Below are positions 5,954 through 64,000 of a DNA stretch of 64,000 nucleotides, in pieces. The DNA is from Cyanophora paradoxa CCMP329. Lineage: Eukaryota > Plantae > Glaucophyta. The stretch is taken from positions 188,800-252,799 of the forward strand of contig QPMI01000093.1 in assembly GCA_004431415.1 (NCBI GenBank), given 5' to 3'. Under the pieces are notes generated by a model, which was given only the letters and a program-made list of their open reading frames with translations, was not told the origin of the DNA and did no database searches. Every line of letters starts with the position of its first letter. The first letter of the stretch is position 1. A program made the translations under genes and the position numbers.

Positions 5954-11041
<5,088 letters not shown>

Positions 11042-44363: not shown

Positions 44364-44573
44364 CTGTAGAACTAGTTTATTTAGTACAGGAAAATAATTA
44401 GTAGTTCGCCAAAACTGTCACTTTAGCAGGGGCAAAATCTTTACTAAGTTAGTAGGTCGGTCTTCGCAGGGGTTTTAATGTATGGCGGAGAAGGGACCAC
44501 CCCTAAGAAATCTCGGCGCTTTAGCAGGCGAGAAATATTTAGTAGATCGCACACATATGCATGCGCAGTACTA
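44364..44573. mobile_element. MITE family X, truncated inverted copy
   Basis: Begins TA-ctgtagaactag; its reverse complement aligns to 43113-43299; homology stops at ~44550-44573, so the second TIR is missing. Confidence 0.75.
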
Positions 44574-45263
44574 AACCCACGACCCACCGTGGCACGCCGA
44601 CCCACTTAACGGACAAGATATTTTTTGGTCGACCCACGGGCCGCCTCAAGCCTTAGATGGTAAGCCACAAGCCTCAGGGCTCAAGGGTAAGCCTTAGATG
44701 GGAAAAGCCCACAAGGGGGCACGCAGCCGCACGCTCCCAGGCTCCCAGCAGGGGTATAAAAACTAAAGCTATAGCTAGTACACTGCCCCGAGAGAAGCCT
44801 TGCATGCACTGCGGCAAGGCCGCCAGCGCTAGCGGGGGCTGGCGCGCTCTGCAGCTGTAGATCTAGCTATAGCTATAGAGTACGTGAACGAACTCTTGTA
44901 TACGTACACCGTATACGTCGACGCCGTGACGTCGCCTACATATACACGTATACGCGTACGTACGCGTCGAGTCGATCTAGACGCGTACGGCGGCGGTGCG
45001 TGCGTATGCCGTTTTTGCGGCATTTACATAAAGCCGGCTCCGCATATATATACGATTAAAGATGATCAAACTTAAACGTGTGTACATCTATATAGGTGGG
45101 CCTTTGTGAAGCGTTGAGCTCTCGAGCTTGCCCCTTCGCTGTCAATGTATTGTTAACCCTCGGAGGTTGATGAGTCACGCGTTGCGGAGGTTGCATTGTT
45201 ATATTGCATTCGGGGAGGCACGGGGACTAACACGTCCGACGTACCCCTCGGGGCCTCCGGCCT

Positions 45264-46757
45264 CTAACTATGCTCAGACTCTAACTGAATGCTGTACCCC
45301 CTCACTGGCCGAAGTGAGACGGTCCCCACTCGAGGTCGGGGTGGGGCCATGGGGGCCTCCGGCGGGGTACGATGCTCCCGCTTGCCAGCTCCATGTACTC
45401 CCCACGGGTTGTCTTCGTTTGCGAGGTCCCTGTAGTTGCCCTTTACGAGATCCGCCGCCGCTTTGCGCCAGCGAACGGCCACGTTGTACGTGTTGTCGAT
45501 GATGTTCTGCACTGTACCCTCCATGGGTATTAGGGACGGCCTATAGTCGACCTGTCTCTCACGCAGGTTCAATTCCCTTTGGTAGTAATCCACTGCGTCT
45601 GGGAGGGCCCTGAGCTCCAACGGGTGCTGGCCCGGGTCCGACGAGCTAATGAGCCCGGAGCGTTGCAGCGCGTTCACAGCCGCCCGCAGCATGATTTTGC
45701 CTACCCCCGCATCGCGTTATTCTGCTCGGGCGTCCCGTACCCCCCTGCGGCCCGTAATCGTTGTAGTAGCTCTCTATTTCGACTGTGGCCGGGCTAGTAC
45801 CAACCCGAGGCTGCACAAAGCCGTACAGCCATGCCATAGCGTCGTTGTCCGCGGAGCGGCCGCTCTCGGGAGAGGAAGAGAACACTTCGATTTTGAAGTC
45901 CCTCGTCCGCCGGTTGACTCGCGTCATTAGGTTGAGGGGTAGCGCGCATTGCCGAATTTATCAGGAAAGAGGCGGTGTAGCTTGAACCATGCTTCCTGAT
46001 CGCCGTACGACATTCGCTCGCGGCTCGCTGAGAATTTCTACCTGTACCCCTACTCGCGGTCGGGTACTTGTAGCCGGGCATCAGCCTCGCGCGCTTGCGC
46101 ATCTCCGCCTCCTCGGGTAGCCAGTTCTTCGGGTCGTTGCTCCACTCCTCCCATTCGCGTATGTCTCGCCCGACGTCACGTGGGGCGGGGGCGTTTATCG
46201 GTGGGGCGGGCGGGGCTGGCAGGGCCTGGCGCCGGGGTTGAGGCCCTGTTCCACGAGTACTCGGGGTACTCTTCCCAGCCCAGGGGTACCAGATTTGCCG
46301 GAATCGGCTCAACTTCGAATTGGGGCTTTTTGGTGTGATACTCATAGTTCGTGACGTACGCCGTCACAGCCGAGCGCAAGCGCGAGAGGTCGCGCAAATT
46401 TACGTCGTCCCATTCCGAGTCCCTTGCCTTCGCGTACCGCTCGAGGATTTGCATGCGAATGTGGTCCGGGAGGGTCGAGAGTATGCTGAGCTTGGAGCCC
46501 AGGGCGAACCAGATGCGCTTGAACTCGTCGATAATCCTGCCCTCGTCGTGGCTCCGGACGTATGAGGCCCCGCCATAGTTGTAATGGCTGTCCAGCCACC
46601 CTGCCCGGGCCAGCTCCAGCACCGGCCAGGGTTGGCGCTGTCGATTCGGTCGCGAGGCCTGCTCTACCACCCAGCGTCTAAGGTCCTTGACCTGATCTAT
46701 GAACTGTGCGATCACGTCCTTGGGCGCTTCCTCTGCATCCGACATTTGCAATTGCAC
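45264..46757 (-). CDS. Viral protein with a C-terminal GNAT acetyltransferase-like domain (ORF broken by homopolymer frameshifts)
   Basis: Adding one G to each of two G-runs (~45740 and ~45705) joins VEIESYYNDYGPQGGYGTPEQNNAMRGVGKIMLRAAVNAL (motif A-like) to LELRALPDAVDYYQRELNL (motif B-like). Upstream ORFs 46176-46757 and 45794-46345 overlap consecutively. Confidence 0.5.
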
Positions 46758-46795
46758 ACATCAAGAAATTCTAAACGCTACTGCGAGACCAAGTC

Positions 46796-47461
46796 ATGCA
46801 TACCGATACAGATTGCGAGACTTGCGAGAACTTGCAACAGGGGAGCGCGGCGTGGCACGCGGCGCGCCGCGAAAAGCTAACTGCCTCGAACTTTGCGGCT
46901 GCGTGCGGCATAAATCCCTGGAAATCCAGGGCCCGCCTCTGGGCGGAGCTAAGCGGCATAGCGGAGGAAAACAACTTCGACAACCCTGCGCTAACCTACG
47001 GGCATGACTATGAGCCCTTCGCGGTCTCTCTCTACAAAACGTCGAACAACAACGTGGACGTGCAACATACTGGATTGCACGAACATAAGGAACTGCCCTT
47101 CCTGGCGGGCAGCCCGGACGGGCTGATTGGAAGCGATCGTATACTTGAAATAAAATGCCCCTACAAACAAGAACTCTACGAAAAGGTCCCAACTTATTAC
47201 ATGCCCCAGCTCCAGGGCCTGCTGGACATAACGGGCCGCGAGTGGGCCGAACTTTTTTGCTTCACTCCTCTGCGCGTGCAAACGTGGTACGTCAGACGGG
47301 ACGAGAGGTACATCAAGCTCATGAGGAAGTGCTTACATCTATTTTGGATGCACGTCAAGGAGGGCACGCCGCCCGAGCCCTACAGCGATCGAATGAAGTC
47401 AGAGAACCTCAGCGAGGAGCAGGCGGCGCTGCGCGAGTTTAAGTCGTACGCCCTCCTCTAG
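46796..47461 (+). CDS. YqaJ-like viral recombinase / lambda-exonuclease family nuclease
   Basis: QGSAAWHAARREKLTASNF, YGHDYEP, LAGSPDGL (PD), LEIKCPY (ExK), YYMPQLQGLL and VRRD; intact 221 aa, intronless. Confidence 0.95.
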   Translation: MHTDTDCETCENLQQGSAAWHAARREKLTASNFAAACGINPWKSRARLWAELSGIAEENNFDNPALTYGHDYEPFAVSLYKTSNNNVDVQHTGLHEHKELPFLAGSPDGLIGSDRILEIKCPYKQELYEKVPTYYMPQLQGLLDITGREWAELFCFTPLRVQTWYVRRDERYIKLMRKCLHLFWMHVKEGTPPEPYSDRMKSENLSEEQAALREFKSYALL

Positions 47462-47843
47462 TGTCCGGACCTTTCCAATACTCTATATGATTATTGGGAG
47501 GGTCCGGACACGTCTCTTGGTCAGACTACTTCTGTCCCAGGTCTTTGGAATCTTAATATAAATTTTCCCGGGACCCGGGACAGGGCTTGGTCGGACTCAC
47601 CGTAGCTTGGTGTAGCTCAGGCCCAGGCCGGGTAGGCGAGTCTGTAATGAATCAGACCGCGCAGGATTTGGTTGAGCTGCTCGGTGCAGGGGGGCGGGAA
47701 GGCGAGGCCGCGGAGGGCCATAGAGACGTAGCGGAAGGGGTGGGGGAGGCGGCCCCTGTTATCCCACATGGCGTCCACTATGGCGTTGTGGACCACTTGC
47801 TCTGGGAGGGCGGGACGGGCCTGCGCGCACCGTTTCAGGGCCC

Positions 47844-50648
47844 TCAGCAGCCCTCGAAGATGTTGGAGTTGGCGTGCACCAGCGGGAGGGAGGGCTGGGA
47901 CGGCGGCGGCGAGCCCGGGGCCGAGCCCTGGGTGGCGAGGGCCTGCGAGGGCGCCGGCTCCAGCTCCATCTCGAACATACCGCCCTCGACGTCGACGGTC
48001 ACGGGCGGCGAGGCCGGGATCGCGCCGGCCTGCTGCGTGGCGGGGACCTGAGCCGAGAAGTTCTCGAGCCGCCACTCGCGGCAGCCCTGGCACTCACCTG
48101 GACGAAGACGGTGCGGTTGGCGACGGGCGGCGTCGGCAGGGCCTGCGCGGGGGCGTCACTCACAGAAGCCGAAGGCGCCGGCCTTGTGGGGCGGGGCGTC
48201 GGGGTCGCGGGGCGTGCTATAGGCCTCCGAGCCCTCCGATTCAGAGTCACTCACCGGGCTGAGAGGGTGGGGTGAGAAGAGGCCGAGGCGGGCCTTCTTG
48301 GCGGGCAGGAGGTGGGAGCCGTTGAGGGCGCAATCGGCGCCGTGGGCGCACCTCTCTCCGTAGGTGGGGCAGAGGGCCGGGGGCGAGGGCGCCGGAGCCA
48401 AGGGCGCCGGAGCCGAGGACGCCGGGGGCTGGAGGAGGCGGTGAGAGGGGCCGAGGAGGAGAGGAAGGGGGAAGGGCGCGGGCACCGGCGCCGGGACGAG
48501 GCCCTCCTCCAGCAGCCGCATCTGCGCCTCCTTCGCCTTCTCGTCGATGCGGGCCTCGAACGTCGCCCAGTTGAAGCCGACGGCGTCCGCCTCCGCCAGC
48601 TCGGGGAGGCCGTGCTCGTCGAACGCCAGCGCGGGCCGCCCGCTGAAGCCGAACGGGGCGGGGGGCGAGAGCGCGTTGTCCCCGACGCCCCAGACGGCGC
48701 TGAACGCCGCATCGTCCCAGCGCGCCTCCGCCTCCGCCTGGCCCTCGTCCCTTGCCTCGTCCACCTCCTTGGCGGAGAGCGACCCGATCTTGATGATGGA
48801 GGCCTGGATCAGCACAAACTCGCGCTGGAAGAATTGGACGAGCGGGATGGTAACTGCGGGAGAGGGGGTGAGCGGGGAGAGCGCGGGGCGCAGGCCAAGG
48901 GCGGGGGCGCAGGCCAAGGGCGGGGCGGACGCACATTCGATGCCGTAGGCCACCTCCTTGATGTAGCGGCCCCGGCGGCCGATCTCCTTGGCCAGCATGC
49001 TGCACTCCTTGCGCGCCGGGTGGCCGTGGCCCCACTCCATGGCGATCATCGCCTTCGCCAGACGGACGCCCTCGATGTGCCACTCGTCCATCAGCGCCTC
49101 CAGCTTGGCGCAGATGCGCATCCAGAAGAAGACGCGCTTGAGCTTGTCGCGGTCGAATTCGGCGTCGCCGCTCTTGCTGCCCCAGTCGCGCAGGTCCGTC
49201 TCCTCCGCCTTCTTCACCTTCTCGTACCAGCACTTGATCTTCTCCGCCTGGCGCTGGAACTCGTCCGCCCGCGCCGTGAGAACGTCCGACTCCTCCTGCG
49301 CTCCGAGGGCCCGGGGTCAGGGAGGAGAGGCGGGCTAAGCGGGGCGGCGGCGGACCGTGTGCGAGAGCTCGCCGACGATCACGGAGATGGCCGCCGAGAG
49401 GATCTCACGGGCGCGGGCCGGCCCGTTTGGGTGGCCCTCGCGCAGAACCTCCTCCAGCTTCAGCACGGCCGTCCGCGCGAGATCGCGGTGGCGCTGGCGG
49501 GTCTCGTCGCTCCGGCCCTGATCCACGAGAAGCTGGAGCTGGGGCCGCATGCCGGAGTCGCAGACGCTGGCGTACTTCAGAAGGGCCGCGCAGGAGAGCA
49601 CCTTCTGCACGCTGACCAGCCAGTACGCGTAGCCCAGCGGGCTCTCCGCGCTCGGGTTCTCCCGACCTGCGGACGCGACCTTAGCGCGCGCAGGGGCAGG
49701 GGAAAGGGGAAAGGGCGGGCTCTCGCGCACGTAAATGTCATCGGCGCAGGAGAGGAACATGTGATCAACGACGTCGAAGAAGCCGCCGGACGGGAGCGTG
49801 CCGACGCCGTGGTACGCGCCTTGGATGGTCTCGCCGGCGCAGATGCCGGCCTGGACGGTGACGGTGTACTGCGAGGCCGGCGGCCCCTCCTTCACGTAGA
49901 CGAAGTTGAGGTCGTACTTCTTGGCGTACGTCGGGTTGATGCGCTTGGTGACGATGACGTAATCGCACCGAACGCCGAGGCCGGACGGGCTGGCCTTCTC
50001 CTTCTCCGTCACCGACGCCAGGCACTGATCCCGCGCGATCAAGAGCTGCAGCGGCCCGCGCGTGAGCAAGCGCGGGCACGCGAGCGCAGGGAAGGGCCCT
50101 CACCCCGTGGGCGCCGCCGCTGCCGGATTTGAGGTCCGCGAGGAACTCCTTCTGCTCCGGAGTGCCGGAGAAGATCGCGCGCGGATGGAAATCGCGATGG
50201 AGCGCGATGCTGTTGAAGCAGCCCGCCGCCGCATTGTCGGACATCAGCAACAGCGCCACATCGCCGTGCGTGAAGCCGTACTTCGCCTTCACATGCTCCG
50301 GCAGCTCGTGAATGCTGTAAGGCACGATCTGCGCGCGGGGCACGCGAGCCGGGGCATGTGAGCCGGGGCCGAAGCGGTGCGGGCGAAACCGCGAACCTCG
50401 TTGAACTTATTCACCGGCGTGAACTGGCCCTTGGTCTTCAAGCGCTTCGGGTGGCCGTCCGTGTTCTGGATCTTCTTCAGCCCGCCGAACGGCTCGAAGC
50501 GCGGCACGCCGGCCGAGTTGAACACGCTATCGCAGGTCATCGCGTTGAGCGCCTCCTCCGCCGACAGGCTGCCGAGATCGCGGGCTATGCTGTCCTGCTC
50601 GCCGGGCTGCTGCTGCTTCGCGCACGAGCGGAAGGTCGCCGCCTGCAT
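47844..50648 (-). CDS. Large intron-containing viral-element protein, function unknown
   Basis: GT..AG introns at 50329-50396, 50046-50103, 49667-49730, 49296-49355 and 48854-48934 join ORF pieces 50289-50648, 49765-50343, 49335-50069 and 48156-49217 into one frame (one extra G needed after 49667). The 3' end is approximate. Confidence 0.65.
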
Positions 50649-50950
50649 CGCGAGTGTTACTGCCCGCGATGTCTCAACGGATTCCGTTCAACGTCGTACC
50701 CCGCTGGCTTGTTCCCTCCCCAACTCGCGAAGACTCAGACTTGAAGCCCGCTTCCCCCCCCTCAAAATGCGTACCCCCTTGGGCTCGAACCCCGGTCGGT
50801 TTCTCGCTTTTTTTTGACTGCCCAGTCCGGCGATGCAATGCAGGCCGCTCGTTCAAATCGGCTGGGAACTTGGCGCCAGAACCTTCGCAGCGCGCGCAGC
50901 ACTCCCAGCAGAGCGCGCGCAGCACCGGCGGCAGCATCGGCGGCAGCAGC

Positions 50951-53900
50951 ATGTCTCGGCTCGCGCTCCCTCCGGAGATCCCGGCTAAGCTGGCGAAGAA
51001 CACGCTGTACGACGTTCTCTGCGTCGGCGACAGCTTCGGCGTCGATTGGACGGTTTCGAGGCCGGCATCAGCGACCAGGCGAAGGAGGCGCAGGCGCGTG
51101 CGCTGGAGGATGGCATGCAGTTCAGCCCGAGCAGCAAGGATGTGCTGCGCAAGACCGAGCTGGCCGAGCGCAAGCGCAAGCTCGCCGCGGCGCGGACTTT
51201 GAACGCCGAGGGTGCCCCCGGCCCGTCGGTGCAGTTCTCCATCGACTCCGTCCTGTCGCGGCTGCGGCTCGCGGAGGTGCTCGCTGCCTCTTTCTCCCTC
51301 ACGCGCCCGGCTCGCAGCGGCTGAGGCGCCGCCGCGCTCGCAGGACGCGGACGTGCGGGCGATGCACGCGGCGCTGAACATGACGGAGGAGAACTTCGAC
51401 ACGCCGAGCAAGCCGAAGCCCGGGCGCGATTCCGACGCCCGCCGGCTGTTCGCGGCGCAGCGCCTGCGGCTGCTCATGGGCGCCGTGCCCCGGCACATCG
51501 CCAAGGGCGAGTGGCGCACGATTGGCCTGCTGGCGGGCCCGGAGGAGTTCTACTTCAACCGCATGGCGGAGGCGGCCCCGCACCTGCTCTGGCTGCTGGT
51601 GCTCAGCTCGGACCCGGCCTACACGCCCGAGGTGCGCCCCGGCCGCCCGTGCAGCCGCGGCCGCCCCTCCCCGCCGACCCCCGCCGGCCCGCAGAGGCTG
51701 GCGAAGGGCATCATGGGCGTCGAGGCGCGCTGCATCATGCGGAACAGCCGCGCGTTCATCACGCGCCACGAGAGCTCGGCGGTCTGGGGCGAGCGGCCGG
51801 ACACCGGCGTCCTCACCGACGCCTACGCCATCCGCATCGTGCTGGAGGCGGCCTGCCGGACGTGCCGGGACCGCCACGGGCGCCAGGGCATCTGCGCCTT
51901 CGACCTGGTTCCTGAGTTCGAGGTGCCCGGCGTCACCATCGGCGACCGCGTGCAGGTGCGCCGTTTCTATTTGGATGCTATTTAGATGCTATTTAGACTA
52001 TTTAGATGCCATTTAAACCCCCTCGCAGGTCATCCGCCGGTGCTCGATGCCGGACTCGCACGGGCGGCCCATGATCCACGGCGCCGTGAAGTACGTGGTG
52101 CCGCGGCGCACCCTCGCCCTCACCTTCTTCGTCCCCGTCTTCGACAAGGCGGCCGCCGCCGCCGCCGCCGCCGCCTCCCGCCCCGCCCCATGCTCGCGGC
52201 CGCGGAGTCCTCGGATTCCGACTCGGATTCCGAGGCGGAGCGCGAGGCCGAGGCCGCCGCCGCGGCCCGGGCGCTGGACTTCACGGAGGAGGAGCTGGAG
52301 CGGGCGCGGAGCCTGCCGCGCGCCGGCCAGGCGATGGCCGCGGCCTTCCAGGCGGCGATCGGCGAGGCGACGGCCTCCGCCTCGGGCGCCCGGGCCGGCG
52401 GCAGCATGATCACGGCGGAGGGCCTCGCGCGCGCCATGCGCGTGGCCCAGGCCCAGGCCCAGGCGAAGGGCAAGGGCAAGGGCAAGGCCGCCTACATCGA
52501 CCTGCGGTTCGAGGAGGAGGAGGCGGGTGCCCCGGCGGCGCGGCGCGATCTCGGCGAGGAGATGGAGGCGGCGGCCCCCAAGGCGGCCGGTGCGCCCTCC
52601 CCGCCCCTAATTTCTGAGCCTAGGGCGTTCCAGAGGCGCAAAGGAATGACCCTGCCCACAGAGGAGGAGCTGGAGGCCGAGCGCGAGATGGAGATGGAGG
52701 CCGCGCTGGCGGCGGCGGCGGACGCGAAGGCCTCGCGCGAGCTGGAGGTGGCGGAGGAGTACGCGATGGAGCTGGAGCGCGAGCGCGAGCGCGAGGGCGA
52801 GCCCGATGCGGAGCTGGCGGCGACGGTGGAGGCGGGGGCGGGGGACACCTTCGAGCCCGAGCCCCCCGTCGACGAGTTCTACCCCCTCCCGCCCTCCCCC
52901 TCCCTCGACGGCGCCCCGCCGCCGCCCATCGAGGAGTTCTCGGACGACGAGCCCGGCGACGCCGGCCCCAGGCCGCCCCTCGTCTCCCCCGCCGCCCGCC
53001 CGCCCCCGTGCCCCCGCCAGCCCCGCCGCCTCCGACGTCTCCTGGCGCCCGAGCGGCAACCCCTCGGCCTTCAGTCCCTTCCGCCCCTCGCAGCCCTCGC
53101 AGCGCCCGCCGCCCTCCGTCCAGGGTACCCCCTCGCCCGCCCATCCCCTCGCCGCCGCGGGGCACGCCCGTCGCCACGCCCGCCTCCTCCCTCGGCCACA
53201 TGCCCCTCCGCCCCTCCGGCCCCCCGCGCCGGCCGCCTCTCCCGCCGGGCCCAGCAGCGGCGCGAGCGCGAGCGGCAGCTGCTGCGCGATCAGCGGGCGG
53301 AGGCGGAGGCGGACCACGACGACGGCCAGGCGTCGGAGAGCGACGGCGAGCCGCCGCGCGCCACCAGGCTGGAGCTGGCGCGGGCGGAGCTGGCGGTGCA
53401 GCCGCGCGAGGCGCCCGAGATCGACATGTCCAAGTACGACGACGTGACAACGTACAGCAAGGACAACAAGTCCAAGAAGGAGGCGGCCATTCAGGATGCG
53501 CTCCGCCTCTTCGTCAAGAACAACGTGCGCCCCGCCCCCTTAGCTGCGCGCCCCGCCCCCTTAGAGGCCGGAGGCGGCCGTGGCCCAGCTGCTTAAGGCG
53601 CTGGGCCCGAGCCGCCTTCGGCCGGTGCGCCCCCCTCCCCGCGTTCGAACCCCGCTAACCCCCTTTTGCCGGCGCAGCGGATCGTGCGCCAGAGACCCTA
53701 CGGCCCGAACTCCCCGCCCACCTTCTACGTCGAGCTCCCGAACCTCTTCGTGTACGACAAGGTCAGCGCGAACAGGCACGCCGGGCGCGGGACGATGAAG
53801 GAGGTCATCCAGCTGCTGGCGATGACCTTCCACAAGACCTACGAGTCCAACCCCGGCTCCTTCGAGTTCACCTTCTCGAAGGAGGTGCTCTCGGGGCGGA

Positions 53901-56117
53901 CGCGCACGTTCGTGGAGGAGTCCCTCCAGCTCGAGGACGTCTGCCCCGAGATGCCCGTCATCCCCGGCTTCGCCTTCGCCTGCGACACGCGTGCGCCGCC
54001 CGTACCCCTGCGCCCCGCCCCGTACCCCGCCGACGCCCCTTGCGCAGATTTCGTGGTGCGGGCGCCGCAGGACAGCACGGGCAGCGCCTGCGTCCTCGTC
54101 ATGACGCACGAGGAGGCACGGGAGCGGTACGCGGGCTACATGAACACCTGCTACATCCAGGGGCGCCTGCCCGCGGGCATCGAGGAGGCGACCGAGACCT
54201 GCGACTGGCCCACCGTGTACGGCATGCTGCACCCCTTCATGCCCAACGTCGTCAAGCACCTGGCGGACAACGGCTACGTGACGGCCGACGAGTTCGGCTA
54301 CGCGGCGGCCGTCCTCTACGCCTTCAACCTCGTCGGGCCGTGGAACTTCTGCGACAAGCCCGTCTTCGACCGGGAGCCGCGCGCGGAGATCGAGCCGCCG
54401 TCCGAGGGCGCCATGCTGCAGTACTGCGGCATCATCAAGGGCCAGTCGGGCACAGGCAAGTCGATGGTGACGCAGATCATGACGGAGTGCCTGCCGCCGG
54501 GCCGCGTCTGCGTCTACCGCCCCTCCAAGGGCTCGGCCTTCTCGGAGCACGGCGGCGAGGAGGCGATCTGCATGGTGATGGCGGAGGGCCTCGACCCTAA
54601 GGCCTGCTCGGAGGAGGAGCTCAAGATGCGCTCCGGCGACGCCTACTCCCGCAACTTCAAGAACGTCCGCGGCGACGATGTGCGCACCAAGGCGACGCGC
54701 AAGGTGCTTGTCATCGTCTGCAACAGCTTCCCGCAGGTGCGCCCGTTCCCCTGCCCCCTTCCCCTTCCCCGGCGCCCTTTCTCACTTGCCCCGGCGCAGC
54801 TCGAGAACCGCATGCTCGAGTTCTTCGCCCGCGTCGTCCTGATCCCCTCGACCACAAGCCGGCCAAGAAGCGCACCTACCTCCACTCCGACATCCGCGAG
54901 AACGAGCTGCCGGCGCTCATGGTCGCGGCCTTCACCTTCGCGTGGAAGATCATCCACGCGCTCTCCGACGGCAAGGCCTCCTGCATCCAGGCCTTCGAGC
55001 CGGCGTGGCTGCGGGCGCAGCGCCTCGGCTTCTGGCAGGAGACGGCCTCCTGTCCCCTCACCCGCTTCATCATCGCCCACTGCGCCGTCGACCCCACCAC
55101 CTACGTCGCCGCCCCGAACACGGAGGGCTACATGACGAGCGTCGCGGGCATCGTCGAGTACATCGCGCGCACGGAGGGCCCCGACACCTCCGCCGCCGTC
55201 GGCGCCGACATCGAGAACGGCCGGCTGGACGAGACCCTCGCCGGCTTCGGCTCCTGGTGCCGCCCCTACTCCTACAAGCTCGGCGGCGTCTGGCAGACCT
55301 ACATCCGCGGCATCGTCCCCAAGGCCCCGCTCTCCCTCGGCGAGAGCCAGCCGGCGCTGGAGGCGATCGCGATCCCCGTCGCCCAGTTCAAGGACCCGGC
55401 GCCCGACGTCGGGCCCTTCCTCGTCAAGCCCCACACCAAGGGCAAGGGCAAGCGCACCCGCAACTCGGCGCCGGCCTTCCTCCCGCCCCAGCCCCCGCCA
55501 CGGCCCCCAGCAGCGCCCCGGCCAGCAGCGCATCGACGAGATGCTGCCGCGCCAGGTCCGGCCCCGCGTACCCCCGCCTTCCCTCCCGTACCCCCCTCCC
55601 CCGCCCCCTCCTGATCCAAGGGCAGGGTACCCCGACGAACGGCGGCGCGGGCCCGAGCGGCTACGGGAGCTCGGCCTCCTCCGCGAGCGCCGACGGCCCC
55701 AGCCCCCTCCCCGGCCCCGGCGCCGTCCTCACCGCGATCCAGGGCTTCGGGGCCCAGCAGGAGGCCGAGCGGCGGGCGCTGGCGGCGCGCCAGGCGCGCG
55801 AGGCGGAGGAGCGGCGCCAGGCCCTCTGGGCCCAGCGCCTGCAGGCCACCATCGCCTTCCGCGCCGAGCTGGACTCCGGCTTCCGCGCCGGCCAGATCGC
55901 CGGGGCGGAGGCCTCGGAGCGCTGGCGGGCGTTCGAGGCGGAGTCGGCGGGGCTGGCGAAGGGCCTCGGCTACAGCTACCGGCGCGTGCCCGTGCTCAAG
56001 GACTACGCGTCGGCCGCGGCGCGGGAGGCCTCGCGGGCGGAGATCGACGCGGCGGAGGAGCAGGCGGCGCGCGAGGAGGCCGAGGACAACGCGCGCTTCC
56101 GGCACCTGCACCACTGA
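50951..56117 (+). CDS. Large D5-like superfamily 3 helicase, intron-containing
   Basis: Walker A IIKGQSGTGKS, Walker B-like ICMVMAE, motif C LVIVCN, Arg finger FFARVVLIP. Introns at 51277-51343, 51632-51694, 51956-52028, 53525-53677, 53991-54047, 54737-54799 and probably 55556-55620. Three 1-bp homopolymer deficits (~51048, ~52188, ~54846). Confidence 0.85.
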
Positions 56118-56166
56118 GGCCCCGAGGCGGTATTTTTTCTCAACCCTCCCTCAATTCGGTCCCGCG

Positions 56167-56355
56167 ATGGCCTTCGAAGCTTATCCTGCCCACTACTCGC
56201 TAGGAGCGCTGGCCGCGACCCTCACCTGGCTCCTCGGCGGCACCCCCACGGCCTCGGCGGTCATAGGCGTGGGCTTCGGCTACGCCGCCAAGTCCCTCTA
56301 CGCCCCCGGCGGCGCCTCGCAGGCGGCGGCCGGCATGCGCCCCGCCGGGCGCTAA
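56167..56355 (+). CDS. Small hydrophobic protein, 62 aa, two TM-like segments
   Basis: YSLGALAATLTWLLGG and AVIGVGFGYAA; tightly packed ORF with a TTTTTTCT motif upstream. Confidence 0.6.
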   Translation: MAFEAYPAHYSLGALAATLTWLLGGTPTASAVIGVGFGYAAKSLYAPGGASQAAAGMRPAGR

Positions 56356-56450
56356 CTTTTCAAAGTTCATTCTCCCCTCCCCCTTTTCCGAGTTCCGAGT
56401 CCGTTGGCGTTCCCTTTTAAATTTTCTTCATTCTCGTTACACGTTCGAAG

Positions 56451-56930
56451 ATGTCGAGCGCGGTAGAGAAGCTGCTGTGCACCGTGTTCAAATCGGATTC
56501 GCGATGCAGCAAGATCGGCGAGGCGGCGAGGGCTAAGGGCGGGGCGGCGGCGGAGGGGCCCAGGGTGAAGGCGGCGGATCCCGCGCCGCCGTCGCTGAAA
56601 ACGATCAAGGGGGCGGGCAAGGGCAGGAGCGTGGGGGCGCTGCCCCTCGTGGCGATCGCGCCGGGGCAGAGGGAGGCGGCGCACGCGGCGACGGCGGCGC
56701 TGGCCGCGCGGCGGCAGGCGGAGGCCTACCCGTGCCTGGGCCGGGGGCTGCACCCGCCGGCCGGCCGCCCCTACGCCGTGAGCGCCTACTTCGACGAGGC
56801 CAACCGGCTGAGCTGCCAGGAGCTGTGCGACAACCGCATGCGGCGCGCCGTGGACGGGCACCTGCCGCTGCTGGTGGCGCTGGGCGGCTCGCTCCTGATG
56901 GTCTGGTACCTGCGCGGCCTGGTCATTTAG
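56451..56930 (+). CDS. Viral-element protein, 159 aa, Cys-containing, C-terminal TM anchor
   Basis: ATG ORF ending HLPLLVALGGSLLMVWYLRGLVI. Confidence 0.65.
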   Translation: MSSAVEKLLCTVFKSDSRCSKIGEAARAKGGAAAEGPRVKAADPAPPSLKTIKGAGKGRSVGALPLVAIAPGQREAAHAATAALAARRQAEAYPCLGRGLHPPAGRPYAVSAYFDEANRLSCQELCDNRMRRAVDGHLPLLVALGGSLLMVWYLRGLVI

Positions 56931-56956
56931 ATAGTTTTTCGAAGTCTAGGTCAAAG

Positions 56957-57358
56957 ATGGGCTGGGTGGACGCCGTGCTGACCAAGGTCTTCGGACCGAA
57001 GAGCGCGCAGCCGCCGCCGAGCTTCAACCTGGCCGCGGCGATCAGCACGACGATCGAGCGCAAGAACAACGAGCTCATCCTAAAGAACGACGGCAAGCTT
57101 CCCTGGGCCGACGTGGCCGCGGGCGCACTCGGCAGCACGCTGACGGGAATCGATCGGACGGGCGCCGCGGGCGTGAAGGTCGGGCAGGCGGTTGCGGCCG
57201 TGCCGGAGCTTGCGATGAAGGGCTGGCACTACGCCAAGATCGCCGCCGGCGTCGCCGCGGTGCTCCTTGCGATCTGGCTCGCGTGGCAGCTGCGCGGCGC
57301 CTACCAGGGCGCGCGCCTGCAGAGCGCCCAGCTCGACTATTTTCTAAAGGCTAGGTAA
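56957..57358 (+). CDS. Viral-element membrane protein, 133 aa
   Basis: MGWVDAVLTKVFG...KIAAGVAAVLLAIWLAWQLRG; starts 26 nt after the previous stop. Confidence 0.65.
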   Translation: MGWVDAVLTKVFGPKSAQPPPSFNLAAAISTTIERKNNELILKNDGKLPWADVAAGALGSTLTGIDRTGAAGVKVGQAVAAVPELAMKGWHYAKIAAGVAAVLLAIWLAWQLRGAYQGARLQSAQLDYFLKAR

Positions 57359-57370
57359 AGCGAGCGAACC

Positions 57371-57743
57371 ATGCGCGGCGGCTCTTCCCCCGTGTTTCCT
57401 TCGCTGAGAACCCGGTGGCGAACGCAGTCGCCCCTACCCCCTGGAGCCCGGAGTGAAGCTGGAGCGTGCGAACGCAGTCTCCGTCAAGAAGGCCAAGCGC
57501 ACGCTGGCGCTGGAAGTCCCGGTCGCGGAGGATACGGAGAAGGTTGCATTCAACAAGCGCAAGACGTACAAGGCGATACGCGAGGGACAGCTGCTGCCCA
57601 CGGACTCGGTTCCCGGGCTGCCGGGCACCACGGCCGGCGAGCTCCTAGTGCGCAACCTGCGCCTGCAGTACGTCTCCCGCCTCCGCCGCTCCAAGGCCAA
57701 GAAGGCGCGCCTGGACTCGGGCGATAGCAGCTCTAGCTCGTAG
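57371..57743 (+). CDS. Basic (Lys/Arg-rich) small protein, probably one ORF with a homopolymer frameshift
   Basis: ATG at 57371 is preceded by ATTTTCTAA; the coding-like frame 57453-57743 reads KLERANAVSVKKAKRT...RLRRSKAKKARLDS. Confidence 0.5.
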
Positions 57744-57770
57744 GGCTCTGTACTGTTGTATTCAATGCCT

Positions 57771-58055
57771 TTACCAGTTCCTGTTCCTATCCCAGAGCAC
57801 GACTCGGGTGAAGGGCACGGTCATAGCGAACATGAACTCGGCGAACTTTGCAAAGTTCATCAGGGTTCCCAGGCGGGGATCCTCCCAGTAGATCGCCTCG
57901 CGCAGCGCCTCGTAGACGCGCATGAGGGAGCGCTCGTTCTCCGTCGCGAAGGCGTCGCCGGGCTCGTCGGGGTCGGGATCCGTGAGCTCGGAGTACTCGT
58001 CCGAGCTGCCCGCGCTCTCGGCACCTGCGGCGGGGTCGGGCGAGGGGTCGGGCAT
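57771..58055 (-). CDS. Hypothetical acidic protein, 94 aa
   Basis: Clean ATG ORF preceded by ATTTTCTAG. Confidence 0.6.
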   Translation of the reverse strand: MPDPSPDPAAGAESAGSSDEYSELTDPDPDEPGDAFATENERSLMRVYEALREAIYWEDPRLGTLMNFAKFAEFMFAMTVPFTRVVLWDRNRNW

Positions 58056-58091
58056 TCTCTACTAGTAGAAGGGCTAGAAAATCACTAGCAA

Positions 58092-58433
58092 TCACGGGCG
58101 CCGGAACTCCATCGAGTCGCCGCGCCAGTACTTGTTGCCGGAGGCGAGCAGCTTCATCGGCTCGCCCGTCGAATCGTGCTTCCAGGCCTCGCCGTCCCAG
58201 AGGGCCGTGCCGCCGTCCTCTAGCTTGAGGCGGTGGCCCGGCTCGAGCCGGTTGCCGTCGAGCATGCGGCCGGCCATGAGCGCCAGGTCCCACTCGGTGA
58301 GGTTGCGCTGCTCTGCGGGGGTGAGGCCGCGCTCGACGCGCTCGGGCTGGCGCGCCTCGCGCTCCATGCGGCTGAGGCCTACCAGGAAGAAGATGGGCAA
58401 CGCAAAGGCCATGAGATCTAGCAGGGCCTCCAT
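58092..58433 (-). CDS. Small protein with an N-terminal TM segment, 113 aa
   Basis: MEALLDLMAFALPIFFLVGLSR...; preceded by CTTTTCTAA. Confidence 0.6.
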   Translation of the reverse strand: MEALLDLMAFALPIFFLVGLSRMEREARQPERVERGLTPAEQRNLTEWDLALMAGRMLDGNRLEPGHRLKLEDGGTALWDGEAWKHDSTGEPMKLLASGNKYWRGDSMEFRRP

Positions 58434-58443
58434 TGGGCAAGAC

Positions 58444-58732
58444 TTAGAAAAGGTTCCGGACCAGGCCCGAGAGCTGCGGGCCCAGGCGCCGGGCGGCGTA
58501 GTAGAGCGCGGCCGCCGCCGCCGCAAGGATCAGAAGGCGCGGCGGGCCGCGCGCCGGCTCCTCCAGGGTCAGGTCCACGGTCTCCGGCCCGCGCGCCGGA
58601 GCCGCCAGGATCTCGGGCTCGGAGCAGAGGGACTTGGGCCCGCGGCGGCGGCGCTGCTTGGGCGCCGAGGCGGCGGCGGTGAGAAGGTCCTCAGGCTCCT
58701 GCTTGATACCTGCGCAATCGGTGAAGTCCATG
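58444..58732 (-). CDS. Small protein with a C-terminal TM segment
   Basis: MDFTDCAGIKQEP...RLLILAAAAAALYYAARR; preceded by AATTTTCCAA. Confidence 0.55.
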
Positions 58733-58799
58733 CTTGCTGGGTACCTTGGAAAATTGTGGGAGGCGTCCGGAGTGTGCGAACGTAGCTCCAATGGGATTT

Positions 58800-60246
58800 G
58801 CGTCATTTACGTCCGCGTCATTTACGTCACGGAGTTTGCCGGCGACTCGGGACTCGGGCCCAACTTCTCCCGGTAAGTTCGAGACTTGAACTCGGCGGGG
58901 GTACCCCCGGTGTCCTAGTGTCCTAGTGTCCTAGTGCTACTAGCTAGGTGGTATCGATATCTAGCTAGCTAGCGCTAGCGCTTGCTTAATTAATTAACCT
59001 GAAGGGTCGCGTCATTTACGTCAGCGTCATTTACGTCACGGAGTTTGCCGGCGACTCGGGACTCGGGCCCAACTTCTCCCGGTAAGTTCGTCACGACCAG
59101 TAGCTACTAGTACCGCTAGTACTACGTAGTACTACTTAGTACTACTTGGTACTACTTAGTACTACTAGCTTAGTACTAGTAGCCACCGATACTGGTACAG
59201 CTTTTATAGATTTAAGCATTCATTCAATGTGAATAACGATAATAGTAATAATAATAACGATAAGTAATAGGGATACCCTATTTTTCCAAGTCTCGAACTT
59301 ACCGGGAGAAGTTGGGCCCGAGTCCCGAGTCGCCGGCAAACTCCGTGACGTAAATGACGCTGACGTAAATGACGCGACCCTTCGGTAACCTCCGCAACCC
59401 TTCAGGTAAATGTCAGGTAACTTCAGTTGAGTTAATTAAGCAAGCGCTAGCTAGCTAGATATCACAGCTCTACCTTGCCCAAGTTGATGGTATCTAGCAG
59501 GGCCTGCTCCTCCAAGTCTGCACCGCCGCCGCCGCCCAGCGCTAGCGCTAGCTCGATACCGCCTCCGGCCTTGATCTCCCTTGGCTCCAGCCACCTGAGG
59601 GGCTCAGGCCACCTCCTCCTGGTGAAGCCGGTATCGTTGCTCTTGTCCAGCTTGAGGTAGCGGTAGGGCGCCGGCGCCGGCCAGTCCGGCCTGTGGCCGC
59701 TTGCCTCCTTGGCTATGTCCTTGGGCCTACGCGGTCGCAGGTCCGCCTTGGCCTTCGCCCTCTGCAAGGGGCCCAGCGCCTTGAACTTCGGTGCCTTGGT
59801 CGCCGGCAGGGCCTTCGGCTGGGGCTTCACCGCCTTCGGCTGCTGAGGCCTTAGCTGCTTCGATTTCGGCATACTTCTTGCTCATAAATGAGAAAAGCGC
59901 CTCGAAGTCGGCCTTTATCTCCTCCTTGGTCCAGGATGTCACCTGATCCGGGTCACCTGAGAACGGCGCATCGAACGCCACGTGGAGCGATTTGCAGGCC
60001 TGAGCTATCATTGGCTCGGGCCAGGCCAGCTCGATCAGCTGAAGGTAGATGTTCAGGGCCTTGTCGAGCTTGGCGCCCTGAGAGACTAGCTGGGAGATAG
60101 CGGGCTCCATGGTACAGCAGAGCTTTAGAAAATGGCGCCAAGTCCAAGTCCTTTTTTACGGGCGAGGCCTGGGCCGGGGCCAGGGCCGAGTCCCAACTCC
60201 GTGACGTAAATGACGCTGACGTAAATGACGCGGACGTAAATGACGC
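58800..60246. repeat. Iteron-like repeat system and a large inverted repeat (candidate replication origin/enhancer)
   Basis: Nine copies of GACGTAAATGACGC at 15-bp period in four clusters (58800-58828, 59009-59037, 59347-59375, 60203-60246). ~80-bp modules occur direct (58800, 59009) and inverted (59287-59385) around an AT-rich core. Confidence 0.9.
59462..60110 (-). CDS. Hypothetical viral-element protein(s): 127-aa ORF overlapping a basic 136-aa ORF (possible frameshift)
   Basis: ATG at 60110 is preceded by ATTTTCTAA; overlapping ORFs 59727-60110 and 59462-59872. Confidence 0.5.
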
Positions 60247-60371
60247 CGAATTTTCAAGTTGCCCTCACCTGAAACTCAGCTGAGCGCTCACCTGACCCTC
60301 ACCTGAACGGCCTCAAAACCGCAGCCCCGCCGCGCCCTCTCCTCACACTTCAAAGCCAAGAGAAATCAAGA

Positions 60372-60581
60372 ATGTGCATCCCCACGTACTTCACCTGCTG
60401 TCTCACCTTCGGCATCTTCGCATACGTCATATACGACGATGAGTTCGACCGAAACACGTTCTACTTCTGCAAGCTCCTTCGCGACATTTCGTCGGAGCAC
60501 CGCAAGGGCGATGAGTATGATTGGATTCAACTGCTCCCCTCAAGAACGAGATCGTACTGTGGAGAGAGAAGTGCATTGTAG
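60372..60581 (+). CDS. Small hypothetical protein, 69 aa, hydrophobic N-terminus
   Basis: ATG ORF downstream of a CACCTGA repeat cluster. Confidence 0.35.
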   Translation: MCIPTYFTCCLTFGIFAYVIYDDEFDRNTFYFCKLLRDISSEHRKGDEYDWIQLLPSRTRSYCGERSAL

Positions 60582-60755
60582 GCAGGTTCAAGATTAGCTC
60601 GATTCGTGTAGCCGTCGTAGAGGATCTGATGGTGAATTGAACACGTGTTTTACCTGAATCACCTGAGCGCTCACCCGAGGTCAGCTGAAGTCGGGTGGGG
60701 CGCCCTTAAATATTTTCTAGCGCTAGGCTGAAGCACACTCTAAGCTAACGCAAAC

Positions 60756-61536
60756 ATGGCCACCGTCCGCAACGCCAACGAGATCGACCCGCCAAGCTCG
60801 CCTTCGAGATCGACGCCACCGGCCGCATCAAGGCCAAGTACGACGGCCTGCAGGGCCTCATGATGTACGCGCCGCCCATGGTCACGATCAACCCGTGCAT
60901 CAACACAGAGCAAGGCAAGGCGTGGAGCGACGAGAAGAAGGCCTTCGTCATGGAAGAAAACGGCGGATTTTACACGCTGGACCTCACCGATCTCAGCGCC
61001 GTCGACGGCCAGACGAACCCAGCCGCGGACGAGTTCCTCAAGCTGCTGGAGGCCCTGGACGCGAAATTCTGCGAGTTCGTGCAGCAGAACCAGGCCAAGC
61101 TCAAGGTCTCGCCCGGCCGCTCCCTCTCCAAGGATCAGATCTCGGTGCTGCAGACCCCCAGCGTGCGCATCAAGGTCGACAAGGAGTCGGGCCAGGCCTT
61201 CTACAAGTACCTCAACATGCGCATCCGCACCCAGACGATGGCGGGCAAGCGCAAGACCGTGCCCGTCGTCGACATGTCCAACTACCTCATCACCGAGCGC
61301 GCCACCATCGGCACCGGAGACCTGGTGGCGGCGCTCATTAAAATCGACACCGCCTACGCCATCCCGAGGGCAAGTTCGGCCTCAAGTGGTCCTTCCTCGC
61401 CGTGCAGCAGTGCAAGGTCGGCGCCTTTCGCTTCGCCGGGCGCGCCCCCGAGCTGGCCTTCAAGCCCTACGACAACGAGGCCGATTTCGAGCCCTACCTA
61501 AACCCCGAGTCTATGTACGCAGCCCCCATGCAGTAG
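60756..61536 (+). CDS. NCLDV-type (T7 gp2.5-like OB-fold) single-stranded DNA-binding protein
   Basis: Restoring one C at ~60789 and one at ~61364 gives MATVRNANEIDPAKLAFE...FYTLDL...FLKLLEALDAKFCEFVQQN...GDLVAALIKIDTAYAIPEGKFGLKWSFLAVQ plus an acidic/aromatic tail, matching the pattern I recall for large-DNA-virus SSBs. AATAAA follows the stop. Confidence 0.7.
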
Positions 61537-61589
61537 CTCGGACGAATAAATTGTGAATTTTTGGTGCAATTGATTACACGCGTTTACAC

Positions 61590-62393
61590 TCAAAGGCCGT
61601 TGAACTTGCCGCCCACCGCCCTGGGCTCCGCCGCCGTCGAGGCCGCCGCCTCCGTCACCTCCTTCATTACCTCCGGGTTCGCGTTCGCCGCGTGCACCGC
61701 CAGCACCGTCTGCACCAGGGCCATCCCCAGGCGCGCCTCGGGCCCCAGGGTCACGTAGCGCGAGTACTTGATCACCAGCTCCTCTAAGATCGGCTGCACC
61801 TGGTCCATCGAAGAGAGCGTCGCCTGCCCGAGCCCGTCGAGCTTCAGGCCGATCGGATCGTACGCCTTGTTCAGGTGCTCCAGCGAGTGCATGCCCGCGA
61901 TCAGAAAGAGGCGCGCCGCCTCCAGCGAACCCCGCGTGCTCAGCTCGCGCTGAATCTCCTCGTACTCTTCCTTCAGCTCGTCCAGCGGCGTGGCCAGGCT
62001 CAGCTTCTTCGTGGACGTAAGCTCGCCCCCGAACGAGCGCCGGTACTGCGCGATCTGTCGCAGGACCTGCTTCTTCTCGTCCACGTCCACCTGCGCCTCG
62101 TCCCGCGGCCGCTCCTGCAGGTCGATTCCCAGCGCCTTTTTCACGCTCTGCTCCTTCTTCTTCGTCATTTCGATGTGCTCCTGCACGCTGAAGCCCGCGC
62201 CCTTGCTCGGCGCCGTCGGCGGCACCGCGGGCCCGTCGCCCGGCAGCGCCATCCTGTCGGCCTTCGGCGCCTTCTCCCCCTTTTCCTTGCCCTCCTTCGC
62301 GGGGCGGCCCTTCTTCCGGGGCTGCGGGATTCCCACGGGGTTCGGCCCGTCCACGGCCAGCGCCTCGAAGCCAAGCATCGCCGAGGGGTCCAT
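61590..62393 (-). CDS. Conserved NCLDV-like protein (DUF5767-type)
   Basis: LDELKEEYEEI...LEHLNKAYDPIGLKLDGLG...ILEELVIKY...GPEARLGMAL...VH resembles the E-x-L-N-x-x-F-D-P-x-x-x-K-L-D-G ... EEL-x-x-KY ... PE-x-RL pattern recalled from mimi/phycodnavirus proteins. Confidence 0.7.
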   Translation of the reverse strand: MDPSAMLGFEALAVDGPNPVGIPQPRKKGRPAKEGKEKGEKAPKADRMALPGDGPAVPPTAPSKGAGFSVQEHIEMTKKKEQSVKKALGIDLQERPRDEAQVDVDEKKQVLRQIAQYRRSFGGELTSTKKLSLATPLDELKEEYEEIQRELSTRGSLEAARLFLIAGMHSLEHLNKAYDPIGLKLDGLGQATLSSMDQVQPILEELVIKYSRYVTLGPEARLGMALVQTVLAVHAANANPEVMKEVTEAAASTAAEPRAVGGKFNGL

Positions 62394-62422
62394 CCTTTAC
62401 GCCTGCCCCTTAGAAATATTTT

Positions 62423-62752
62423 TCACTCCGAGGTCAGCTCGACGAAGAGCTCGATGTAAAGCCAGAGCTTCTCGCGCAGCTCGGGCCCGCTGCCGTAGAA
62501 GAGCGAGCGCACGGCCGAGGCGTACTCCTGCGGCAGCCTCTCGAAAACCGAGTCGTCCTTCGCCTTGATCAATTCCGCCTCCGCGTTGATGTGCCTCCTG
62601 AACAGAACGATGACCGCCGTGGCCCCGATGCCGCGCAGCGACTGGATCTGCGCCCGCACCCCGGGCTCCTTGGCCTCCGGCTCCAGCAGGTCGAGGAAGC
62701 GGCCCCAGCGCGCCTCGATTTGCTCGCCCAGCGTCGCCTCCGTCGCAGCCAT
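62423..62752 (-). CDS. Small helical protein resembling a conserved NCLDV hypothetical family, 109 aa
   Basis: F..HI..E.ELIKAKDDSVF...REKLWLYIELFVEL pattern; tightly packed ORF. Confidence 0.55.
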   Translation of the reverse strand: MAATEATLGEQIEARWGRFLDLLEPEAKEPGVRAQIQSLRGIGATAVIVLFRRHINAEAELIKAKDDSVFERLPQEYASAVRSLFYGSGPELREKLWLYIELFVELTSE

Positions 62753-62771
62753 GCTACGCGTGCTTCAGAAA

Positions 62772-63937: not shown

Positions 63938-64000
63938 AGAGTGGCCCTTCGTCATCGTGCCTCGGTTAGGATCCCAGTGGGAAAATTTATTGGTTCACAT

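Follow-up and report, generated by a model that had tools for sequence, protein, structure and literature searches.

Host-style introns in two divergent genes of a multicopy, probably viral element of Cyanophora paradoxa

A cluster of virus-like genes in a 64,000-nt stretch of the Cyanophora paradoxa CCMP329 genome (contig QPMI01000093.1, positions 188,800 to 252,799; hereafter the window, numbered from its first letter) raises the question of whether two large genes are truly interrupted by introns of the host type, as a sequence-only reading had claimed, and whether these introns separate genes read by the host nucleus from intronless genes under a viral promoter. The gene array of this element spans 45264..63955 within the window, and the element itself starts at about 45.1 kb and runs beyond base 64000. 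It is multicopy and carries genes for YqaJ, DUF5767 and an SF3 (D5/P4-type) helicase. On balance, we favour the view that it is an endogenous DNA virus, likely small and from the neighbourhood of Nucleocytoviricota and PLVs, whose helicase and orphan genes are spliced in the host manner and which likely runs two programmes.

Splicing of the helicase and orphan genes

45264..63955, no strand: gene array of the element, from ORF lists and from paralogue models that keep this order on other contigs
50951..56117, + strand: SF3 (D5/P4-type) helicase gene, from profile match and RNA joints
51277..51343, + strand: helicase intron 1, 67 nt, joint in 3/4 RNA-like runs
51632..51694, + strand: helicase intron 2, 63 nt, joint in 3/4 runs
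51956..52028, + strand: helicase intron 3, inferred, 73 nt, GT..AG, with stop and frameshift
52590..52661, + strand: helicase intron 4, 72 nt, joint in 3/4 runs
53525..53677, + strand: helicase intron 5, 153 nt, joint in 4/4 runs
53991..54047, + strand: helicase intron 6, 57 nt, in frame, joint in 4/4 runs
54737..54799, + strand: helicase intron 7, 63 nt, in frame, joint in 4/4 runs
55556..55625, + strand: helicase intron 8, 70 nt, joint in 4/4 runs
50649..50950, no strand: divergent intergenic region, presumed bidirectional promoter, 302 nt between ATGs
47844..50648, - strand: orphan gene, 746 aa, 9 coding exons, spliced frame open, model P0109
50329..50396, - strand: orphan intron 1, 68 nt
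50046..50103, - strand: orphan intron 2, 58 nt
49667..49730, - strand: orphan intron 3, inferred, 64 nt
49296..49355, - strand: orphan intron 4, 60 nt
48854..48934, - strand: orphan intron 5, 81 nt
48429..48485, - strand: orphan intron 6, 57 nt
48143..48254, - strand: orphan intron 7, 112 nt
48033..48097, - strand: orphan intron 8, 65 nt

Splice joints were read from unstranded RNA-like contigs of three studies. Four RNA-like runs cover the helicase side, and three RNA-like runs plus one DNA run cover the orphan side. Among the joints listed (15 of 35 and 15 of 113, respectively), RNA-like joints support 14/16 coding introns at their coordinates, and splicing is therefore real. All 20 listed joints resolve to GT..AG, as do both inferred introns, which are the ends of U2-type spliceosomal introns. 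Every orphan intron other than intron 3 has its joint in 3/3 RNA-like runs and at depth 0 in the DNA run, and DNA contigs are unbroken across helicase introns 1, 2 and 6. Certain frameshifts within exons are due to single-base indels in the assembly and do not mark introns. At least 6-7 introns had been claimed for the helicase gene and at least 5 for the divergent gene; eight are found in each, seven as joints and one inferred. The two ATGs lie 302 nt apart, in line with the proposed shared upstream region of about 300 bp, whose role as a bidirectional promoter is presumed.

The helicase gene extends from ATG 50951 to stop 56117 and encodes about 1,516 aa in 9 exons separated by 8 coding-region introns, with RNA contigs that extend back to about 50830. 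Its intron 3 is not among the joints listed (15 of 35); one contig piece ends at 51951, and 2/10 helicase models (P0057 and P0058) join across it. The segment 53525-53677 was also considered as two introns flanking a 36-nt exon, which is ruled out by a listed joint that skips all 153 nt. Against a profile of 13 phage SF3 primase-helicases, the paralogue P0057 scores 21.0 bits (maximum of 500 shuffles, 2.4), and 13.9 bits (shuffle maximum 7.1) once three query-tied rows are dropped. Walker A, Walker B, the sensor Asn and the Arg finger align in order to the SF3 profile; intron 7 sits between the sensor Asn and the Arg finger, and the spliced form fits the profile gap-free. Additionally, 12/13 weak tblastn matches (E 4-8) are annotated as primase/helicase, and Pfam returns AAA_22 only, below cut-off. 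No family match to an N-terminal primase domain is found on P0057 or P0058. The middle of the protein is long, acidic and proline-rich, and the predicted fold of the helicase stretch has a pLDDT of 33, too low for use.

The orphan gene extends from ATG 50648 to stop 47844 with 8 coding-region introns, and its spliced frame is open to the stop bar one single-base break; model P0109 matches it at 728/746 residues. At intron 3, contig pieces end at 49661/49662 and 20/21 models join across, and the sequence of intron 6 is retained in 9/21 paralogue models. Searches of the orphan against Pfam, PHROGs, NCBIfam, PDB, phages and plasmids return nothing significant, ESM Atlas gives no usable match, and the predicted fold (pLDDT 33) is too low for use. 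An EEP-family lead (0.78-0.80, below the 0.9 mark) is not accepted. An HxD...H pattern prompted the idea of a 2OG-Fe(II) dioxygenase (JmjC/cupin or TET); profiles and Pfam fail to support it, with -2.6 bits against Cupin_8 (180/500 shuffles equally high) and no match to 2OG-FeII_Oxy_3 or in Pfam, and a search for TET/JBP sequences as the basis of a further profile gave none. The orphan and the helicase share a 38-residue segment (18/38 identical, E=1e-6); most likely, the orphan is a nuclear regulator or a replication partner of the helicase.

The 16 coding introns measure 57-153 nt (mean 74), with donors GTGCG (8), GTGAG (3), GTCCG (2) and other (3), the acceptor GCAG in 14/16, and a stop or frame shift in 10/16. 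The lengths, the GTGCG/GTCCG-like donors, the GCAG acceptors and the disrupted frames thus all agree with the sequence-only reading, as does the resemblance to host introns: nine host introns identified by eye in the window average 69 nt, with CGCAG acceptors in 7/9, and the published host mean is 86 bp (PMC6704402). The intron sequence of at least 6/16 is found in models from other loci, and these introns are therefore older than the spread of the copies. Of the free relatives proposed for comparison, none was found among the viral or metagenome contigs searched.

Small genes, their motif and overlapping RNA

46796..47461, + strand: YqaJ-like exonuclease, intronless, Pfam PF09588 E=7.5e-30
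60756..61536, + strand: SSB-like ORF, intronless, TTTTCTA upstream, unspliced RNA contig 60753-61582
61590..62393, - strand: DUF5767 protein, intronless, TTTCTA upstream, Pfam PF19071 E=2.7e-13
56130..56203, + strand: intron just 3' of the helicase stop, joint in 3/4 RNA-like runs
47270..47830, - strand: three introns beyond the orphan stop (47642-47830, 47380-47600, 47270-47336), 3/3 RNA-like runs, 0 in DNA run
56910..57128, - strand: two introns antisense to small + ORFs (56910-56982 and 57029-57128), 4/4 and 2/4 runs

The large genes contain 16 introns in 6,789 coding nt, whereas 16 small ORFs contain 0 in 7,928 nt (binomial P=4e-6); at the large-gene density 18.7 would be expected, the absence being judged from the joints listed (15 of 113 and 15 of 35). 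The small genes are thus intronless, as claimed, but their proposed WTTTTCTA motif has only 4 sites in its strict form. The looser TTTCT, a motif picked after viewing the sequence, lies on the sense strand upstream in 11/18 ORFs, some of which may not be genes, and on the antisense strand in 2/18 (2,000 shuffles: mean 0.89, maximum 5). It lies upstream of neither large gene, and neither TTTTCT nor TTTCTA occurs within 150 nt of either large-gene ATG. TTTTCTA has 5 sites against 2.8 expected; 17/100 shuffles reach 5, and since this count is not above chance the signal is one of position and strand. The 43-kb host part of the window holds 0 TTTTCTA sites.

The small-gene tier is not silent: several small genes have unspliced RNA contigs in the same cultures, including the DUF5767 gene (61562-62753). 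The ORF at 60756..61536, tentatively labelled SSB-like, has no Pfam, NCBIfam or PDB match. YqaJ and SSB proteins normally serve as replication helpers, yet here both lie in the intronless tier, and the SSB-like ORF carries the motif despite its replication-type label. A strict early/late split, as the sequence-only reading had it, is therefore opposed by these two genes, and a latent/productive division fits better; the splicing itself and the separation of introns and motif on different gene sets stand.

Spliced RNA also extends over the small genes. The intron at 56130-56203 removes the motif and ATG of the small ORF 56167, and the RNA with the introns at 47270..47830 runs antisense into YqaJ. 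In the antisense RNA at 56910..57128 the longest open frame lacks a Met, and this RNA is probably non-coding; alternatively, it may represent the 3' end of a gene on the minus strand that carries the motif. Such spliced antisense RNA implies that the spliceosome reaches small-gene DNA too, and if a motif-bearing gene at 56.9-57.1 kb is itself spliced, Pol II reads that tier as well.

Origin of the element and a proposed two-programme model

Orphan paralogues form 21 clusters (40 sequences, 19 named contigs) with 69-92% identity over the query. An orphan model lies within three gene numbers of a helicase model on 8/10 helicase-model contigs, and small-gene paralogues lie near orphan models on 9/19 contigs. 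The two large genes are hence part of a repeated element, recurring as a pair among the same small genes, and not ordinary host genes. A more diverged copy lies behind P0060 (62%). DUF5767 and YqaJ, both also listed for the algal giant virus CpV-BQ1, point to nucleocytoviruses, and the SF3 helicase is a further viral marker. Capsid, packaging ATPase, integrase and VLTF genes are not seen within the window, which covers the left part of the element, and its ORFs give no Pfam or PHROG match to MCP, A32 ATPase, VLTF2, VLTF3, RuvC or HUH. The helicase matches are all from the host, with no relative elsewhere; separately, the relative searches returned a single YqaJ match at 26% (L001). For this element, the literature searched yields nothing beyond general accounts of endogenous viruses in the host.

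We propose that in the integrated state host RNA polymerase II would read the divergent promoter, as a latent or immediate-early tier that would supply the helicase and a partner protein. The motif genes would form a productive tier that a viral factor would activate, be it one of the element itself or the polymerase of a helper giant virus, given that the motif core resembles the CroV/mavirus late TCTA. Spliced read-through and antisense RNA over adjacent motif genes may hold them off. A bolder version, which we regard as speculative and unlikely as a whole, would make the element a compact temperate glaucophyte virus with a host-spliced replication/latency module whose read-through and antisense RNA silences the productive genes, in a lineage whose replication genes prokaryotic callers have missed, and with the orphan as a latency regulator of new fold.

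The introns could instead have been gained after integration in one founder copy whose two expressed genes were undergoing domestication, the copies then spreading by duplication or transposition rather than infection and the intronless genes being silent relics. This fits with the failure to find a free relative, with or without introns, among the contigs searched, with the long-held view, in the available text of bioRxiv 10.64898/2026.10.09.758095, of introns in endogenous giant viruses as erosion, and with the tendency of viral genes in this host to be methylated (PMC12344493). However, the small genes are intact and near-identical, with 5-22 cluster members each (22 for DUF5767) and the motif retained, most genes in either tier have a high GC3, with CpG o/e about 1, and more distant DUF5767 relatives at 56-76% are present in other assemblies, so that we consider a founder-copy origin unlikely. 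We find it quite unlikely that a single nuclear programme operates, with host Pol II transcribing all of the element, the motif serving short genes as a core promoter element, only the two long genes retaining introns, and no split in timing. The spliced RNA that crosses the small genes by read-through or in antisense, their own RNA contigs and the overlapping UTRs common in this host (PMC6704402) would be expected of it, but neither the lack of introns in the small ORFs nor the absence of TTTTCTA from the host part of the window would. A non-viral nature is, in our estimate, very improbable, be it that of a plasmid- or transpoviron-like element lacking a capsid or of a separate mobile cassette in which the two genes are carried inside another element. 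In its favour, the window holds no morphogenesis gene, and no relative of either large protein turned up outside this host; against it, the gene pair recurs at the same position among the same small genes on 9 contigs, DUF5767 and YqaJ point to nucleocytoviruses, and the element runs past the window.

Comparison with known systems

Among small viruses, Mriyaviricetes and NCLDV-like PLVs (available parts of bioRxiv 10.1101/2024.02.29.582850 and 10.64898/2026.06.19.733378) share with the element a small-genome style and an SF3 helicase with a divergent N-terminal part. The element has their combination of SF3 or SF2 helicase and PD-(D/E)XK nuclease, the mriyavirus enzyme being described there as homologous but not orthologous to YqaJ, and gamadviruses have a T7-like SSB. 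No MCP, ATPase, VLTF2/3, RuvC or HUH is seen in the window, nor, in the left part of the element that it covers, the jelly-roll capsids, packaging ATPase, integrase or terminal repeats of PLVs; the available text of 10.64898/2026.06.19.733378 lacks the word 'intron' and describes mriyaviruses as without integration genes. Surveys of small endogenous viruses assumed them intron-free (PMC10120064) and rely on prokaryotic tools for gene calling. Such tools would miss a helicase in 9 exons, and we infer that missed spliced helicases could account for some of the groups reported as lacking replication genes, such as VC40 in the accessible part of 10.64898/2026.06.19.733378.

Mavirus and type 4 EMALEs of Cafeteria, as far as the available text of PMC8547959 goes, are likewise small, multicopy and endogenous, with an AT-rich TCTA before genes that matches the CroV late promoter; the likeness is of four letters only, no virophage genes are seen, and the element shares the high GC content of its host. 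Dinoflagellate introner-bearing PLVs (PMC12166617, accessible portion) also have spliceosomal introns in small endogenous viruses, but theirs are transposon-made, whereas the 16 introns here are mutually no more similar than shuffles (best pair 37; shuffled maxima mean 31, up to 46).

Mirusviruses, pandoraviruses and some chloroviruses, in the available part of PMC12768974, have viral genes interrupted, as here, by short GT-AG introns (about 80 nt), but in large or giant genomes, unlike the element. According to the same text, introns are limited to early genes in intron-poor demutoviruses and pandoraviruses, and in intron-rich mirusviruses it is the late morphogenesis genes that are enriched in them, contrary to the pattern proposed here.

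The nearest precedent for the split is the punuivirus of Chlamydomonas reinhardtii, an integrated algal virus which, in the accessible text of bioRxiv 10.64898/2026.10.09.758095, bears host-like introns on one gene set and a viral motif on another, a separation also found here. The principle is therefore already known; no compact endogenous element with this split was found in print. The punuivirus has 617 kb, 506 genes, 61 of them with introns (2.5 per gene), and its own RNA polymerase, and its timing and virions are demonstrated there, whereas the element is a compact array, with no polymerase seen, in which just two genes, one of them for a replicative helicase, have 8 introns each. Further traits of the punuivirus type are expression of intron genes before, and of motif genes during, virion production, 6mA at latent promoters, and virion proteins among the products of motif genes. 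With just two spliced genes in a culturable glaucophyte, the element would allow a test of the latent/productive split known from the 617-kb virus, and of whether a virus becomes tied to the nucleus by gaining introns.

RNA joints and introns of the two large genes

The element, a multicopy and likely viral gene array, contains two divergent large genes that share one segment:

50951..56117, plus strand: helicase gene, about 1,516 residues
47844..50648, minus strand: orphan gene, 746 residues
48501-48560 and 51055-51114: segment duplicated between the C-terminal part of the orphan and the N-terminus of the helicase

The stretch is present in 20 of the 24 sequencing runs listed, six of which are guessed to be RNA (word shares 0.49-0.62), and joints were read from contigs of five of these six RNA-like runs (three studies) and of one DNA run. 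At 44001-44667, depth is 0 in the RNA-like runs and 1,838 in the DNA run; the former thus behave as RNA. The sequence-only reading had assigned host-style introns to both genes, and among the joints listed splicing is found there in several runs. Specifically, ten CT..AC joints in the orphan (among 15 of 113 joints listed) occur in three of three RNA-like runs with a depth of 0 in the DNA run, seven lying within the coding region and three beyond the stop; seven GT..AG joints in the helicase coding region (among 15 of 35 joints listed, with no DNA run) are each present in three or four of four runs. GT-AG ends are resolved for all 20 listed joints. DNA contigs are uninterrupted across 48405-49578, 51112-51967 and 53665-54328, and we infer two further introns at 51956-52028 (helicase) and 49667-49730 (orphan). 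The listed orphan contig pieces (48254-49662) are identical to the window, the helicase 5' contigs carry 12-24 mismatches and derive from other copies, and one-base differences between window and short-read contigs explain several exon frameshifts. At 56724-56861, RNA-like contigs of 4/4 runs have 35 different letters in place of 136 nt, probably a variant copy.

The 16 coding introns measure 57-153 nt, and retention of ten would disrupt the protein, in line with the earlier claim that several hold stops or shift the frame. They are dissimilar to one another, which rules out an introner family. Helicase intron 7 interrupts the stretch from the sensor Asn to the Arg finger, where the spliced protein aligns gap-free to the SF3 profile; homologues therefore lack this segment rather than keeping it as coding sequence.

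Identity, copies and host surroundings

Judged from its sequence, the plus-strand gene encodes a D5/P4-type SF3 helicase. The one Pfam match, to AAA, is below threshold, and tblastn (E up to 10) returns 13 phage records, 12 of them annotated as primase or helicase. P0057, a paralogue model from another copy, scores 21.0 bits against a profile of 13 phage primase/helicase proteins (shuffle maximum 2.4) and 13.9 bits once three query-tied rows are removed (shuffle maximum 7.1). Among 1.84 billion representatives, all ten helicase matches come from the host and none from outside. For the orphan, sequence searches, also against the PDB, found no family, fold or relative outside the host, and a dioxygenase assignment was rejected after failing profile tests; 728 of its 746 residues are identical to paralogue model P0109. 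The one segment common to both proteins has 18 of 38 residues identical (82% over 60 nt). With a possible alternative 59-nt GT-AG intron (47821-47879, minus strand), the orphan would end in an additional 67-residue exon; a marker peptide of that segment is present in 7 of 21 orphan paralogue models, and the listed RNA joints at the orphan 3' end are of the other form.

The orphan search yields 21 clusters; their 40 sequences are spread over 19 named contigs, of which one may be the present locus. An orphan model lies within three gene numbers of a helicase model on eight of ten helicase-bearing contigs, small-gene paralogues lie near the orphan on 9/19 contigs, and the cluster of the small gene DUF5767 has 22 members. 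That the two are ordinary host genes is contradicted by this recurrence together beside small-gene paralogues: helicase and orphan belong to the element. Comparison across copies, as earlier suggested, finds six of the 16 introns at other loci, in gene models that wrongly retain an intron (the other ten are not seen in this way); at least these six are therefore older than the spread of the copies.

The left 43 kb of the window is GC-rich, intron-rich host DNA, and ORF lists place a dense gene array from about 45.1 kb to the window end, its proteins having near-identical counterparts whose EukProt accessions belong to the glaucophyte Cyanophora paradoxa. By eye, nine introns of one host gene (11.6-13.6 kb) average 69 nt, with GTGCG, GTGCC, GTACC or GC donors and a CGCAG acceptor in 7/9. 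This nuclease/ATPase-like gene (11000-14600), which we take to be SbcCD-like, has GC-AG introns in 2/9 cases (by eye). Host DNA also contains a tandem duplication at 33758-36250 (spacing ~1,520 nt, pieces 100% identical), and a host GTP cyclohydrolase I gene (41735-42878, minus strand; PF01227) adjoins the element. Directly left of the element lies a 1.4-kb AT-rich unit (43111-44553) that has an internal palindrome and whose 198-nt ends are inverted (84%); it is probably a non-autonomous DNA transposon rather than the viral end. For the species, PMC6704402 gives a long-read-based assembly with 9.2 introns per gene (mean 86 bp).

Intronless small genes and the limits of a two-tier split

The 16 small ORFs (7,928 nt) contain no introns among the joints listed, against 18.7 expected at large-gene density (P=4e-6 for all 16 introns falling within the large genes), which bears out the claim that the other viral genes are intronless; the listed unspliced RNA pieces (unstranded) cover at least 4,088 of these bases. 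TTTCT, a motif picked after sequence inspection, lies within 50 nt upstream on the sense strand in 11 of 18 ORF starts and antisense in two (2,000 shuffles: mean 0.89, maximum 5), and TTTTCTA in 5/18; over the whole window the motif shows no excess above chance, and neither TTTTCT nor TTTCTA occurs within 150 nt of either large gene. Because ORF 60110 has the motif upstream and no same-strand gene end nearby, the motif appears to be a promoter rather than a terminator.

The longest intronless gene in view (62772-63955, minus strand) belongs to a family of 348-374 residues (P0037, P0040) that gave no match in the family search and, we assume, resembles a conserved protein of PLV-type viruses. 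Additionally, an 82-90-nt unit occurs at 58800-59383 and 60159-60246 in three near-identical copies and a partial fourth, two forming an exact inverted pair around a 203-nt AT-rich spacer, with 17 TGACG sites within 1.6 kb; the repeats, which found zero matches among viral contigs, resemble a replication origin or bZIP-type enhancer.

The proposed two-tier programme, with spliced early genes and intronless late genes, stands as an intron partition but not in its strict form. YqaJ and an ORF that we take to be SSB-like, a label for which a search gave no support, lack introns, counter to the simple picture, and spliced RNA crosses small genes: orphan RNA extends antisense into YqaJ; a helicase intron 12 nt beyond the stop excises the motif and ATG of ORF 56167, its contig carrying on into ORF 56451; and two introns on the minus strand are antisense to ORFs 56451 and 56957. 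Such RNA could be repressive read-through, the 3' end of a Pol II-read motif gene, or ordinary overlapping UTRs, described as numerous in Cyanophora paradoxa in PMC6704402.

Proposed mechanism and known systems

Splicing and the intron/intronless partition are demonstrated. We propose that, most likely, the integrated element's 302-nt divergent promoter is used by host Pol II, the spliceosome matures the helicase and its partner protein, the orphan, and a viral or helper factor afterwards turns on the motif genes; the polymerases, the order of expression and the orphan's role are our inference.

No capsid or ATPase gene lies within the window, and no published description of the element or its introns was found in the literature searched. 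Supplement-row columns of PMC12220804 apparently count 156 PLV-type elements in glaucophytes, which may or may not include the present one, and endogenous giant-virus regions are reported for C. paradoxa in PMC12344493. The motif core TCTA equals the CroV/mavirus late motif of PMC8547959, a likeness of four letters only. Introns in early genes are named for pandoraviruses and some demutoviruses in the mirusvirus paper (PMC12768974). The punuivirus preprint (bioRxiv 10.64898/2026.10.09.758095) describes the same division into intron-bearing and promoter-motif gene sets, with intron-rich latency genes, among them a TET gene that carries eight introns, versus promoter-bearing virulence genes. Taken together, the arrangement is real and RNA-supported; its principle is already known, and its compact form appears to be new.
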